Shown here: piece by piece, positions 3,001 to 9,000 of the stretch
Layout of the letters: the number at the start of each line of letters is the position of its first letter
Numbering within the stretch: the stretch's first letter is position 1
IMG/VR virus record: IMGVR_UViG_2703718787_000017
From: a virus
Lineage: Duplodnaviria; Heunggongvirae; Uroviricota; Caudoviricetes
Strand: one strand, 5' to 3'
DNA: 64,000 nucleotides
Position numbers: made by a program

Positions 3001-6000
3001 TCAATGCCAATTGGTGCTTCTTTCACTGAAGCCACCACAATGGCGCGGGAATAATCCAGCCCACCGGGCATGGCGATGAATTTGTCACGGAAAACAGAAA
3101 AGGGCGGTTTATTCTCTGCAACGATTTCTTCAACGCGTTTTGCATGTGCAGGGTGCAGGTTATAAATATCCACATCCATTGAACGGGCCAGAACGCCAGT
3201 GGCAATGTCTCGCGCCAGTGATGCCTGATTGTGGGTAAAGCCTTCGCCACGATCGGTAAGATTTCCGCCGCCAGCGTTAGCACCGGAAGGCGTACGAGTG
3301 ATGCCTGTAACATAATTTCCTTTCTGCCATTCTTTTGCCAGCAATCCCTGATCCACATAGTCTGTTTTCATCCAGGTGGAGATGAACTTGTCGAATTCGG
3401 CCGGGCTGATATGACGGGGTGTTGCGTGAGAGAATGCCTTTCCAACGGATTGTGCCAGTCTTCCCAGATGATAATTCGTCAGCTTATCCAGCTCTGGATG
3501 TGAACGCACAGCAGTAAGCAGGCTCTGAAGGTAACTGTCTTCTGTGTCCATCTCCATACGGATCACGTTATTTCGTTGTTCGGGTGTGGCGTGATGCCGA
3601 TATTTTCCATCTTCATCTTTGCTGAAGAAGAGGTGAAGGAAGCGATGAGTAAGGCTCAGAGTGGCGACGGGAATTTCACACTCAGAACAGTCATCGTCGC
3701 TGTCCGGGGATTCGCTTTTCTCCACATCATCCGGAATAGTTCCGTCCAGGTTATCGTAGTCATCGCCAGCTGTTGTGGCATCTTCACCGTTGATGTTGTC
3801 ATCGAAGGGGATTGCCATCATGGTGATGCCATCTTCCCCGCCTTTTTCATAGCGGTTGCAGAATTCAGTATCAAACACGCCTTCCGGTGGAAGGTCATTC
3901 ACGACGGGGAAATTTACGCGAACGGGTTTTTTGAAATCATCCTCGTCGTAGCCTGCATCGTCCATGGCTGCAATGCAGCGGGAAACTGCGACAGAAAGTT
4001 TTCTGGTATCAGCCCAGAAAAAACCGCCTTTGATGCCAAGGCGTTTTCTGACTTTATCGTTTTTTGCTTCGCAGTGCAGTGCAAAAGTTTGTTTATCAGC
4101 GCTCATTGTATTTAAACCTCTGGCTGGATTAGAATTAGCGGCCCTTTGTCTGATTTCTCCGAATACAGTGACGCAGGGGGGAGTCCGGTAGCCTGCGCTG
4201 CCGGATTTTTTATTTCAGTGTAAGGTTGCCTGGTTTGTTGTTTTGTGAGTTGTTTTTTTCTTTTCATGCTGGCAGTCAGAGCAGTTGCATTCGCCATTTT
4301 CTCTGAGAAGTTGAAGTGCCAGGGTCAGTTCCTGAATTCTTTGTGGATCAATATGACTGTCGACAATTTCAGATGCAGCATGAATATATGGGCTGGTGGT
4401 TTCGCAATATAAACCGAAGGAAACAAAGCGACTGTCTTTATATTCGTTATTTCCAACTTCTGTAAGCACTGAAAAAGAAAATACAAAGTCGATTTTGTGT
4501 TTTTTGCATATTTTACTGATGCGTTCTGCAATTTCTTTGAGTTCATTTATTGCATCAGGACTGGTTTCGGAAAAAAATTCATTTTGCGCAAGTTCTTTCA
4601 TTTTGATTTTCCCGTGATTGATAATTAATGTGGTTTTTATTTCGGTTTGTCTGTTACAGATATGGAAGGTGTATTTTATTACTCGTCACAACTACTCTGC
4701 TTTTACAGGTAAGCCATCGCGCCCGATGAAAACTTTAATCATGCAGTCGGTAATGCATGTTTTTGTAGTCAGGCTACGAATATAGAGCTTTCTCTTTTCA
4801 ATATTGTTTGCTGAAGCGATATATGTGCGGCCTTCATGAAGAACATAATCGCCAGGTTTCACGCACTGACGTGGTATTTCATCAGTTCCGAAGTGATGAG
4901 CAATCATAATTATCTCCATTTTCACAAATGAACTTTGTTGATGCGGTGCCTAGTGCCTCCAGGTGACGTTAACCAGTTAACAATTAACGCCGGAGCAGGG
5001 GATGATGATTTTCCGTGACATCCTGTCGGTTTAACTGTTCCGCGTGCGCATAGCCGCATTCACCGCATCATAAAATTCACTTTTAAAAAGGGCGGACATC
5101 AGCAATCGGCAAACCGATGTCCGCCAAAGAGGATATTGATACATGGATGTTGCAGCGGGGTTGTCACTCAGGCGTCTGGGGCGATTTCCATTATTTACGA
5201 TGCACTTGAAACATTCCTTGATCGAAAACTTTCATCTGTCACCGACGGAACATCGAGTAAGCAATAACATTTAACACACACTCTAAATAACAAGGGGTGG
5301 GCTTGATACCGTTCTTTTCAAGCTCACTCGTAATCACCTCCAGAAGTCGTGCGCCCATGAGAATTGTCTTGTGGGATGAAGCTATTACGCCGTTGCTGAT
5401 ATTGCTGTTTATTTCTATTGCTTCATTTTCACCATTCGCGCTAACTTCGGATATGTTATTTTCACTCTCCTGTTTCAGAGCTTTTTCTGCCATCCGGATG
5501 CGTTCCTGCGTTGCGGAGTTTGGGCTAAGTCGATAAACCTGTCTGGCATCTTCCAGAAGCAGGGCGATAATGTGCTTCAGTTCTGTTTCGTTCATAGTTA
5601 ACTCCGGTAGTTGCAATTTATTAATATCAGGCGGTCAGCTCTTTAAGCTTCTGAACTGCTTTATTCATTTCATCCATACAGTCGATGAATTCGTCCAGTT
5701 TAAGCTGCATTTTTCCGGCGGCCTGAAGAATTTCAAGTTTTAAGGGCGCAAGTTTTTTGTTGAATACATCATCTTCCTGGCGTTTTTTCTCCGCAATTTC
5801 GGCGGCTTTCAGCAATTCTTCCGCCTGCTTTCTGAGTATTTCTGGTGAAGGTGAAACTGCTTTTAGGTTATTCATTTCAGGTTCCTGTTGTTGCAGAATT
5901 AATTTGTTGCATTCTCTGCGTGAGCGTTTCATCGCAGATTCGCACTTCTTGCAATAAATGGCTCTCCCGTCACGTTTGCTGGCATCTGAATAAAAATCAT

Positions 6001-9000
6001 CGACTGATTTTGTCTGCCCGCATCTGGTACATAATTTTGATTGAAGGTCCTTAATGATTGTGACGTTTCCTTCCCGCTTGGGATATCCATATTTTTTGTG
6101 GCGGAAAAAGGTTACTCCGTTACCAGAACCTTCTTTTCTGACCTTAAATACAATGATGCTTTCCCGTTTATCGATAAAATCTATGAGCTGGTTTCTCTCC
6201 TTTCCTGACAGTTCGGCAAATGTCTTAACTTTTTTAGTAACTTCCGTAAGGCGAACGCCGTCAGGCATTTTTTCAACGAAGTTTTTAATCTCTGCAAGCG
6301 GACGCCATAATTTTTGCGGCAAAACTGAAGGCGTGGTCATCAATCACCTCGCTTTTTTTTACTGATTTGTTTATGCCAAAAATAAAGGCCACCATCAGGC
6401 AGCCTTGTTTTTCTGTTTGCTAAGTTCTCTGGCAATCATGGCCGTAGTTCGTATTGCCCACACCATTGATTTGTATCAATAGTCGTAGTCATCCGGATAG
6501 TCCTGGTATTGTTCCATCACATCCTGTGGATGCTCTTCGAACTCTTCAAATTCTTCTTCCATATCTCACTTCAAATAAGTGGTTTGCTGCCTAATTTTAT
6601 TTTCTGGCGACCAACACAAGTCACACCCGTTTCACTGCGTGGCTTGCGGTAGTAAATTTTGTTAGTCCAAACAATAAAATCTACCGAAGTGGGTTATGAC
6701 CATTTTTTATTTGGATTTCGTTGGTGAGCGTGGTTAACAACTCTGTGCATTATATCCTCATATTTTTCATCTTTAATTTTTTCAACATCTCGAGGAAATG
6801 GTGTTGCTAATGCTTTGTCAACTTTGTCCATTGGGTCTTCATTAATCTTATATTCCGGACCGTCATCTATAGCATTAAATCCAGGTGTTATACCGTTTTC
6901 TAATGCATATGCTATTCTCTTTTCCCATCTCGCTATCCTCCTTCTGTCTCGAGATGTAAGGCTTCTATCAGATACTTTTCTGTTTTGTCCGCGATTAGGA
7001 TTAACATAAATAGTCTTTTTCACCATAAGCATACTCAATAAGTCCATACGGTGGTTTACTGTACAATTTTATTTTTTGAACTGCATGTATTTTGTTTCCT
7101 AATGGGTTTGAATCCTTGTAATAAGTACTTCTGTTTTTGCGCTCGACTTCTTCTGCCTTCTTGTTGCGAAGGCTGCCGAGTGATGCTGCTTTGTCTGCTC
7201 TGACGCAACCAGAGATCTTTAGCGCAATCTTCCGCGTCAGTCTTTCACTACTGCGCCGCTCTGCAATAAGTTCTTCCCTGCGAGCTTTATAGCGGCTTTT
7301 TGCCGTACCTTTGGATTCTTTCCAGATTATGGTTACCATGATGGTCTCCTTTAAGTGGCTTTGGTGTATGACGCGTCGAGGTGTTTTTCTTCTCGATCGC
7401 GGCCTTGCAACTGAAATTCGCGTCATCCCCAAAACCACTTAGATTTTGGTCTCAACGGTTAGGTTGAGAGTCCATCAATGTTAAAGAGCCTGCCAATCTG
7501 TTCCGTTTGGCTTCCAGCGTCCTGCTGTTGAATTGAAGATAACCTAAGTTATCTGATTGTGCAATAACTATATTTATCATTTTATGGAAAACGTTATAAA
7601 TGGCTGATAACAAAAATATTTTATTTTTTGTGGTATCCGCGTGATATTTTCAAGGGGGAAAGGCTGATTGTTATGGGTGATTGCATGTTAATCGAAGGGG
7701 AATTTGGTGTGTTGCACCAGCGGGTAGTCGAAATTCTAGGGGTGTCGTTGCTTGAGGTTATTGCTACTGGGGAAGCTATTTCAGCAGATGCTATTGCGGG
7801 AATGATCCGAGTGCTTCACCATGATGAATTGGATGATCTCGCTGTGAAGTTAGCTATAGATGTGTTACTTCAGGATATGCGACTGTGTAATTAAGTAAAT
7901 AAAACCCGGCACTGGAGCCGGGGGATTTAGAAATGGCATTTTATGAATTGGCTACTTGGCGAATGGTTTACCATCGGTGGTATTGAGCACAATAAAAGGC
8001 CGTTCTTCGTGAGTGTTCTTATAGCAAAAGTTCAGTTGGAGTCTGATTACCAGCTATGTGATGACCAGAACACTCGTCCTATGATTTTTACGTTTTTGTA
8101 GAATTCTTCTCTGTTCATTACTTCATCAGGATACTCTTCGCGGTTTATCGATCTGATAATTACCGATGTTGGTGTGGCTATTAGCGTTTTTACCCTTAAC
8201 AAATCAGCTTGGCAAATTGCATATGTTTTACCATCCCTGATGCTCGTATCTTGCGTGTTTACCCCCACCACATCACCATCATGGAGTGTTGGCTCCATAC
8301 TTTGCCCAACAACCCTGACCAACTTTGCCGCTTTTTCTGGAACTCCCATTTTTTTCAGGTAATAGCGCCTAAAAACTAGAGAGAATTCTGCGGACTCCTC
8401 CAATGCACAACTTCCTCCGCCAGCTGAAAGTGAAATATTTAGAAGGGGGAGCGCAACAAATTCGTCATTATCATTTTGATGATCATCCCAGGCGATAGCT
8501 TTTAAAGATGATTCCCGAGCATTAGATGGCTCTTCTGCGCTCTGTGGTCTCATTGACCCTATACCAGAGCTTAGCCACTCAGGGCGAACTCTTAACGCGT
8601 TGGCTAATTCGACCATTTTACGTGATCCGGTTGTTTTACCAGATGACATCTTTTGTATGGCTGGTTGTGATACCCCCACCATGTCTGCAAGTTGTGCTTG
8701 TGACAACCCGGCTGAACTCATGGCGGCATTTAGTCTTTCTGCGAATGTTTTCATACCTGTAATCTATAACCACGGTTATCAAAAGTAAAACAACAATTGT
8801 TATTGCTCTGTTGTATAACTCATGTTATTTTTGGTTATGCTTTATTTGCTGTAGAGGTATGCTCATGAATTTAGTGATTCAGCGAGCCTTGAATATTGTT
8901 GGCAGTCAAAAACGACTTGCAGCTGATTGCGGCGTATCACAGCCCGCTGTTCATAAATGGTTGCGAGGCGGAAAAGTTTCTCCTGAAAAAGTTTTCGCTA

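Follow-up and report, generated by a model that had tools for sequence, protein, structure and literature searches.

A probable mosaic of lambda-type and Rac-type modules in the early-left operon of an Stx1a-converting lambdoid prophage

Introduction

What are the genes that lie between gam and the N region of a lambdoid prophage, where lambda carries kil, cIII, ral, and sieB, when they do not resemble the lambda genes of that interval? The question is raised by the early-left (pL) operon of IMG/VR virus record IMGVR_UViG_2703718787_000017 (Caudoviricetes), of which a stretch of 64,000 nucleotides (nt), referred to here as the window, was analyzed. An earlier reading of the sequence alone (the sequence-only reading) had described positions 4215–6562 as an AT-rich cassette of at least four unrecognized genes with possible anti-restriction, superinfection-exclusion, or host-takeover functions. 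Our analysis indicates, with considerable confidence as to identity and architecture, that this block is the delayed-early accessory part of the pL operon, recombined from three recognizable sources. The block is an ordinary mosaic of early-left modules of the lambda and Rac types that has already been sequenced and annotated, and it does not constitute a novel type of system. The functions considered below for each of its three uncharacterized proteins, named here g128, g118, and g237 after their lengths in amino acids (aa), are tentative at best.

The first source would be a lambda/HK022-type segment that contributed nun and orf28 together with a ral carrying an internal deletion and the terminator located after it. 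The second would be the family of g237, whose members normally stand directly after N, and the third a Rac-type early-left module comprising g118, the terminator of the small RNA (sRNA) KilS, the kil leader, kilR, g128, and a gene resembling the N-terminal part of recE that precedes gam-bet-exo. The features of the block, all of whose genes are on the minus strand, are as follows.

4215–4601, minus strand: g128, conserved hypothetical protein of 128 aa, between kil and the recE-like gene (phrog_2016)
4692–4907, minus strand: kil, inhibitor of the cell-division protein FtsZ of the Rac KilR type, 71 aa (NF008465, phrog_294, identity to KilR)
4893–5091, minus strand: kil 5' leader, homologous to the 5' untranslated region (UTR) of Rac kilR (Rac alignment; sub-threshold STnc100-like RNA)
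5078–5125, minus strand: intrinsic terminator between the g118 gene and kil (folding energy, U-run, KilS alignment)
5239–5595, minus strand: g118, 118 aa, a 42-residue N-terminal microdomain and an Escherichia coli-specific C-terminal half (PHROGs, profile search)
5627–6340, minus strand: g237, 237 aa, comprising a candidate winged helix at the N-terminus, a C4 zinc ribbon (optional), and a long helix at the C-terminus (PHROG, homologs, model)
6385–6406, minus strand: intrinsic terminator directly 3' of the ral remnant (terminator scan, fold, lambda alignment)
6395–6492, minus strand: ral pseudogene, frameshifted by an internal deletion of 103 bp (lambda alignment, tblastn, PGAP fragment)
6476–6562, minus strand: orf28, acidic 28-aa open reading frame (ORF) overlapping the ral start (lambda identity, phrog_16060)

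Gene content, conservation, and mosaicism

The description of the block as minus-strand pL-operon genes interrupted by two intrinsic terminators was borne out, as all of the ORFs are present and both hairpins are far more stable than shuffled sequences. The ORFs at 4215–4601, 5239–5595, and 5627–6340 agree with the PGAP and RefSeq calls in identical or near-identical records. The Shigella Stx1 phages 75/02 Stx and POCJ13 (Sepvirinae), which are 98.4–98.7% identical to positions 4100–6370 of the window, carry the same four genes, annotated as three hypothetical proteins and Kil. Thus, of the four genes taken as unrecognized, three do belong to families of unassigned function, but the fourth is a Rac-type kil.

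Relatives with a synonymous divergence (dS) of up to 0.46 carry the four main ORFs in the same frame and at the same length, and the ratio of nonsynonymous to synonymous divergence (dN/dS, omega) is below 1. Since frame, length, and purifying selection hold across diverged relatives, the four ORFs are considered real genes. That some of them are chance ORFs, a suspicion to which AT-rich DNA gives rise, is hardly credible: each matches a PHROG over its full length, and the Shine-Dalgarno sequence is good for g118 and g237 and weak for g128. Such ORFs do occur here, as the overlapping 61-aa ORF at 4112–4297 (minus strand; phrog_29463) is indeed spurious despite a PHROG of its own. It overlaps the 3' end of g128, and its frame is not kept in relatives. 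The plus-strand and small overlapping ORFs of the block gave no PHROG matches, except for the remnant of a phrog_2605 gene described below.

The marked AT-richness reported for positions 4200–4950 was confirmed, with a GC content of 0.379 against 0.498 for the window, a value as low in only 0.3% of 750-nt windows. The block is not only compositionally distinct but also mosaic. Against the relative FHI_NMBU_11, dS is 0.02 for g237, in contrast to 0.41 for g118, 0.28 for kil, and 0.44 for g128, and the match to 75/02 Stx stops at the ral terminator, at about 6370. Because of this contrast in dS and the end of the match at the ral terminator, the separate acquisition suggested earlier is reasonable, in the form of ordinary lambdoid module exchange.

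The Rac-type module: kil, its leader, and the KilS terminator

The product of kil matches the NCBIfam model NF008465, "FtsZ inhibitor protein", with 150.3 bits (cut-off 92) over profile positions 1–71 of 73, the allele of the window lacking the last two residues. It also matches phrog_294 Kil (E 1.7e-36), and 65 of its 71 residues (92%) are identical to those of K-12 KilR; PGAP labels 4692–4907 kil. The earlier reading had recognized a gene here, which is real, but had started it at 4919. The ATG at 4907 is the likelier start, because GGAG lies 7 nt upstream of it and because both the PGAP call and K-12 KilR likewise begin with MIAHHF. Omega of kil ranges from about 0.03 to 0.28 between diverged relatives. 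K-12 KilR is known as an inhibitor of FtsZ that causes filamentation (PMC12482147 and PMC5793797). By analogy with such close homologs, the kil of the window is predicted to inhibit FtsZ as a host-takeover function. The kil gene is the only one of the four with a well-characterized match. Hence, of the roles proposed earlier for the cassette, host takeover applies to kil, while functional homology was found for none of the other three proteins.

The leader of kil is near-identical to that of Rac from the 3' arm of the 5078–5125 hairpin to the kil start, and positions 4672–5103 are 83–87% identical to Rac-type phages by megablast. In a local search against Rfam, the leader aligned with the entire STnc100 model (RF02076, positions 1–206; E 3e-4) at 28.7 bits, which falls short of the gathering score of 47; the STnc100 family is common in Stx prophages. 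The hairpin itself has a folding energy of -23.9 kcal/mol (z-score -5.1), none of 200 shuffles was as stable, and it is followed by CUUUUU. K-12 KilS (b4833), which is Hfq-associated and described as a kilR 5'-UTR sRNA, aligns at its 3' end with the 3' arm and U-run of this hairpin. The alignment is limited to these elements, and no homology to the 98-nt body of KilS was found in the window. The relative FHI_NMBU_11 retains a Rac-like KilS body. Both the window and 75/02 Stx have lost about 330 nt here by deletion, including the KilS-like body and the greater part of a 69-aa ORF on the plus strand (phrog_2605), and retain only the terminator. Hence, by these alignments, the 5078–5125 hairpin is the surviving terminator of a Rac-derived KilS-type sRNA. 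When window positions 5126–5238 are compared with positions 2465–3125 of a related locus (L017), the 3' UTR of the g118 gene is seen to run directly into this terminator.

The early-left order of the K-12 Rac prophage is racR - ydaG - ydaF - sieB - KilS - kilR - ydaE - racC - recE, and the usual order in Rac-type prophages, with a microdomain gene like that of g118 followed by kil, (ydaE), and recE, is matched by the window. The window shares with Rac the closely similar KilR, the homologous kil leader and KilS terminator, and a recE-related gene downstream. It differs in that the KilS body is deleted, ydaE, racC, sieB, ydaF, and ydaG are absent, and the recE-like gene lacks the nuclease part; tblastn searches of the whole window with Rac SieB, YdaE, RacC, YdaF, and YdaG gave only chance-level matches. 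It also carries a lambda-type gam-bet-exo, and its operon would be N-dependent, not of the RacR type.

The lambda-type segment: orf28, ral, and the terminator after ral

The 28-aa acidic peptide ORF, previously proposed as a possible gene, is present but carries an annotation that dates back to the lambda genome. It shares 27 of 28 residues with lambda orf28 (NP_040623), occupies the same place relative to the ral ATG, and matches phrog_16060 (E 4.7e-17). Lambda orf28 is non-essential by CRISPR interference (PMC10695390).

In the sequence-only reading, ral was replaced by unrecognized genes, which does not hold, as ral is still there in the form of a pseudogene. In the lambda alignment, the remnant retains codons 1–13 and the last 21 codons with a 103-nt gap between them, and tblastn with lambda Ral recovered residues 46–66 at 90% identity and residues 6–15 in a different frame. 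An intact ral ORF of about 66 aa is not present, the remaining residues 1–13 and 46–66 being in separate frames, and PGAP calls just a 23-aa "antirestriction Ral family" fragment. The gene is therefore regarded as a pseudogene, because the 103-nt deletion splits the ends that align with lambda. The hairpin at 6385–6406, folded within 6375–6415, has an energy of -16.9 kcal/mol (z-score -4.5), is followed by UUAUUUUU, and was also found by the consensus scan. It aligns nearly base for base with the sequence just after ral in lambda. Since the same hairpin follows ral in lambda, the terminator was inherited from a lambda-like ancestor.

The window thus resembles the N–gam interval of lambda (sieB, orf28, ral, ea10, cIII, kil) in operon place, orientation, orf28, the ends of ral, and the hairpin after ral, and terminators inside an N-antiterminated operon are standard lambda biology. 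Unlike lambda, it has a ral pseudogene, no sieB, ea10, or cIII, a kil of the unrelated Rac type, and three genes without a lambda counterpart. In tblastn searches with lambda CIII, SieB, Ea10, and Kil, none of cIII, sieB, ea10, and a lambda-type kil was detected in the window, where all matches were at chance level. The sole match to CIII was a chance stretch of 21 residues at 21834–21893. Unlike the window, 75/02 Stx and POCJ13 have no segment with nun, orf28, and the ral remnant; in these phages, g237 stands directly after the N region.

The three uncharacterized proteins

Searches of Pfam, NCBIfam, and PADLOC returned nothing significant on the function of g128, g118, and g237, and their PHROGs are families of unassigned function only. 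Sequence-profile searches of the PDB with the three family alignments gave nothing below E 0.005, two structure models and three fold searches showed no functional homology, and literature searches on the protein accessions gave no matches.

The protein g237 belongs to phrog_2539 (function not assigned; E 1.2e-130) and has 67 homologs across the Enterobacterales; its omega is 0.1–0.26. The family alignment shows two conserved parts, one N-terminal with about 90 residues and one C-terminal with about 75, and the invariant positions are almost all in the latter. The two parts are separated by an optional insert of some 45 residues with four cysteines, a CxxC...CxxC zinc ribbon at about residues 93–130 of g237 that is missing from forms of about 170–205 aa. 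In the AlphaFold model (mean predicted local distance difference test score, pLDDT, 79.5), a winged helix at residues 9–81 is followed by the beta-rich ribbon at 93–130 and a single long helix at 166–236. The N-terminal part is modeled as helices at 9–23, 31–37, 39–42, and 46–58 and then a beta hairpin, with a pLDDT of 80–93. Of the C4 ribbon and long coiled coil claimed before, the ribbon and a 70-residue C-terminal helix are thus supported by the model and by fold and profile matches. The Pfam family PF27269 (YonG_N) has a precomputed "faint" match on g237 homologs only, it was not reported when g237 itself was scanned locally against Pfam, and a literature search on YonG found nothing relevant.

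Judging from its predicted fold, g237 is most likely a dimeric DNA-binding protein acting as an early regulator or a DNA-associated factor, an assignment that remains tentative. In such a dimer, the long helix at the C-terminus would link the winged helices, each with or without the DNA-binding-type zinc ribbon, in the manner of PadR and RTP. The model of g237, with a putative winged helix and then a long helix, recalls the winged-helix dimers of the PadR/RTP type, and its weak Foldseek matches include PadR, LmrR, RTP, BlaI, and Fur. Compared by predicted fold, it differs from them in the extra zinc ribbon and in a much longer, separately conserved C-terminal helix, and it shares no sequence homology with them.

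The ribbon could instead be taken as the mark of an HNH or endonuclease VII-type nuclease. PHROG matches to endonuclease VII, endonuclease, and HNH proteins extend over residues 96–188 (E 2e-10 to 3e-6), tblastn and BFVD also return HNH endonucleases, and in the Foldseek search of BFVD the ribbon superimposes at 0.5–1.7 Å on those of HNH-type proteins from phages. However, these matches are limited to a ribbon of about 50 residues, which matches the zinc ribbon of phage HNH and endonuclease VII proteins in PHROG and tblastn searches alike. Moreover, most of the family lacks the ribbon while the putative winged helix and the C-terminal helix are conserved, and Pfam gave no HNH match. Since neither a histidine nor an HNH motif is found in the aligned segment LCTRCGQTKSVDDFYSDASKRDGRAIYCKKCES, we consider that g237 is not a nuclease, and this explanation is very unlikely.

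A gene for g237 or a homolog lies directly after N in phiSTEC1589-Stx1c, PhiR5_2, prophages of Kluyvera, Buttiauxella, Enterobacter, and Intestinirhabdus, and one further contig. In the last five of these, the N genes that precede it are of three different types. As an outside prospect, this "first gene after N" family could represent a new early DNA-binding regulator. In the Intestinirhabdus alba prophage (our locus L018, positions 5665–6819), the gene after the g237 homolog encodes a pentapeptide-repeat protein of 384 aa with ANLxG/ADLxD repeats, a fold that is often a DNA mimic. Such neighbors suggest that the slot after g237 homologs collects varied accessory functions.

The protein g118 matches phrog_2982 (E 3.8e-66), and its full-length homologs are confined to E. 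coli. Its residues 1–42 also match phrog_30817, phrog_12693, and phrog_32391, and a profile search of 1.84 billion cluster representatives returned 65 proteins of 46–220 aa whose common part is residues 1–45 only, with the consensus MNETELKHVIALLLEDAKRLQQLEPNAGTEARIW. The C-terminal tails of these proteins belong to different PHROGs. Among 34 distinct alleles of the first 42 codons, the proportion of synonymous differences (pS) is 0.64 and that of nonsynonymous differences (pN) 0.18, with variation mostly at third positions. Because pS far exceeds pN and the variation falls on third positions, the microdomain is conserved as a protein and not as a DNA element. Omega of the whole gene is about 0.4 (0.3–0.5 in most comparisons). 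In phiES15, pAEv1818, and many IMG/VR prophages, the microdomain gene follows a DicA/RacR-like repressor and lies 0.5–1 kb upstream of a KilR-type kil, ydaE, and recE, which makes it the first early-left gene in Rac-type prophages. PADLOC gave two chance-level matches only for g118, and YdfB/YdfC of the K-12 prophage Qin, considered as relatives of the microdomain, are unrelated on reading by eye.

This position raises the possibility that the microdomain is an analog of CIII, the FtsH inhibitor that stabilizes CII, or another lysis-lysogeny or early-left regulator, for example of read-through of the KilS terminator into kil/recE. A cII gene is present (9205–9501) and the window contains no recognizable cIII, and g118 is immediately upstream of kil, the place of cIII in lambda and HK022. 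Many members of the family have 46–70 aa, a CIII-like size. The microdomain is strongly constrained at the protein level, and in Rac-type prophages its gene comes first among the early-left genes. However, position by itself is weak evidence, no Pfam Lambda_CIII match was found, and at least one related prophage has a genuine cIII further downstream of its g237 homolog. The hhalign comparison of the g118 family with lambda CIII was null (probability 0.06%), as were those with YdaF and YdaG. A CIII-like role is accordingly judged improbable. The microdomain may define an unstudied microprotein family, under strong selection at the protein level and attached to many unrelated tails, for which a role as a new regulatory or host-takeover factor could be imagined as an outside prospect. 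It could control read-through into kil/recET, replace CIII, or direct the differing tails, acting as effectors, to one shared target in the host.

The protein g128 belongs to phrog_2016 (function not assigned; E 1.6e-66), and its homologs, 65–98% identical, are restricted to E. coli. It is predicted to be helical, its gene has a GC content of 0.375 (0.318 at third codon positions), and omega is about 0.3–0.5 in most comparisons. RacC, which holds this place in Rac, was considered as its counterpart and rejected, since hhalign showed no similarity. An A7 run lies near 4255, and the "154-aa" variants of g128 in databases read C-terminally in the frame of 4112–4297. By analogy with other small pL products (Kil, CIII, and Gam), g118 and g128 may, with low confidence, be small helical proteins that bind host proteins.

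Finally, g128, g118, and g237 may have anti-restriction, superinfection-exclusion, or other anti-defense functions, with g237 for example replacing the dead ral. The three genes lie at the place of ral and sieB in lambda, ral is inactivated here, and varied accessory genes including that of the pentapeptide-repeat protein follow g237 homologs elsewhere. The genes of g118 and g128 evolve fast (omega about 0.4), with divergent alleles on near-identical backbones as expected for arms-race genes. The zinc ribbon of g237 matches phrog_5558, "Lar-like restriction alleviation protein", at E 1e-9, but this match is confined to the ribbon (residues 99–162), which HNH and endonuclease VII proteins share and most members of the family lack. 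The Pfam scan found no Lar (Lar_restr_allev) or Ral domain, and no homology to characterized anti-restriction or exclusion proteins emerged from the PDB-profile and fold searches. PADLOC gave no significant match either, though it models defense systems and not anti-defense proteins. Anti-defense functions are therefore possible, although on the unlikely side.

Prophage setting and the pL operon

Positions 4100–6700 of the window are 100% identical to the chromosomes of several human isolates of Shiga toxin-producing E. coli, e.g., E. coli S19-651 and JNEC-KY208. In JNEC-KY208, the match lies in an annotated short-tailed lambdoid prophage in ynfG with stx1A/B, Q, the nin region, O/P-like replication genes, cII, cro, cI, and int. 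By this identity, the window belongs to an Stx1a-converting lambdoid prophage. The leftward order is cI, nutL, N, nun, the block, the recE-like gene, and then gam, bet, and exo. The features that flank the block are as follows.

8047–8754, minus strand: cI, first in order of transcription, before nutL, N, nun, and the block
7450–7489, minus strand: nutL, boxA GCTCTTTAACA and a boxB-type hairpin CTCTCAACCTAACCGTTGAGA, upstream of N
7001–7339, minus strand: N, antiterminator of the phage-21/P22 type (phrog_271, arginine-rich motif)
6694–7032, minus strand: nun, HK022-type transcription-termination (lambda-exclusion) factor (phrog_5632, identity to HK022 Nun)
2061–4106, minus strand: recE-N-terminal-like gene, 681 aa, between the block and gam

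The gene that flanks the block at 6694–7032 had probably been taken for N. It is in fact an HK022-type nun: its product matches phrog_5632 (E 2.2e-69) and shares 105 of 112 residues (94%) with HK022 Nun over the full length, with the arginine-rich SRDRRRIARWEKRIAYAL and the C-terminal NPNKKWS conserved. With a GC content of 0.357, nun is as AT-rich as positions 4200–4950. N lies further upstream at 7001–7339 and was identified by phrog_271 (E 1.1e-30), a weak Pfam N_peptide match, and the arginine-rich motif GTAKSRYKARREELIAERR. The identity of Nun, the ral remnant at 6395–6492, and the 681-aa recE-like gene had all been missed. In HK022, Nun takes the position of N and there is no N, while in the window nun stands directly behind the phage-21/P22-type N with an overlap of 32 nt in one pL operon, as it does in PA28 and several Stx1a phages. 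From these matches, the phage would carry both an antiterminator and a lambda-excluding terminator factor. The 681-aa protein matches the model of RecE (exonuclease VIII) over positions 1–593 of 877 only (744 bits, cut-off 1269) and would therefore be the N-terminal region of RecE without the nuclease domain, directly upstream of the lambda-type gam-bet-exo.

The combined pattern of boxA and a boxB-type hairpin occurs once in the window and in none of 100 shuffles, and we take 7450–7489 to be a lambdoid nut site. A second, identical boxA at 9098–9108 (plus strand), just past cro, is presumably nutR. Shortly before the start codon of N, the two 16-nt arms of an inverted repeat (7360–7375/7419–7434) are separated by 43 nt and are 81% complementary; they may give the N leader a structure comparable to the stem that RNase III processes in lambda. 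A plus-strand 69-aa ORF at 7685–7894 (phrog_3946, E 2.6e-30) is situated between the cI terminator (7905–7922) and the pL region, roughly at the place of lambda rex.

From this synteny and lambda biology, the block would be transcribed from pL by a polymerase modified by N at nutL, which would then pass both hairpin terminators. In the absence of N, the two terminators and Rho would prevent expression of kil and of the recombination genes in the lysogen. Rho silencing is reportedly documented for Rac kilR. After induction, Kil would block FtsZ-dependent division, as shown for its close homologs.

Several points weigh against this overall picture. A consensus scan did not find the pL promoter, and read-through of both hairpin terminators by N-modified polymerase is presumed. 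The weak candidate TTGCAC-17-TATCTT at 7536–7564 was read by eye; it is flanked by operator-like ATAAC/GTTAT repeats, and the repeat search found no oL/oR operators. As for the individual proteins, the Foldseek search of the PDB with g237 gave only winged-helix proteins (Fur, PadR/LmrR, RTP, BlaI, and Rpc34) at weak E values of 0.01–0.4. Distant 172-aa relatives of g237 are found in the nin region instead of after N, so its position is not universal, and the structure model of g128 is unreliable.

Implications

For annotators of Stx phages, the use of this analysis lies in its corrections: kil is of the Rac type, the 28-aa ORF is lambda orf28, ral is dead, the gene next to the block is nun and not N, and the terminators are inherited from lambda and Rac. 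The block also places three catalogued families of unassigned function in the early operon of a medically relevant Stx1a prophage, where they are reasonable, if non-urgent, targets for early-function screens. Two of the three occupy a well-defined conserved place, g237 as the first gene after N and g118 as the first early-left gene of Rac-type prophages. The most interesting remainder is the microdomain family of g118, followed by the g237 family.

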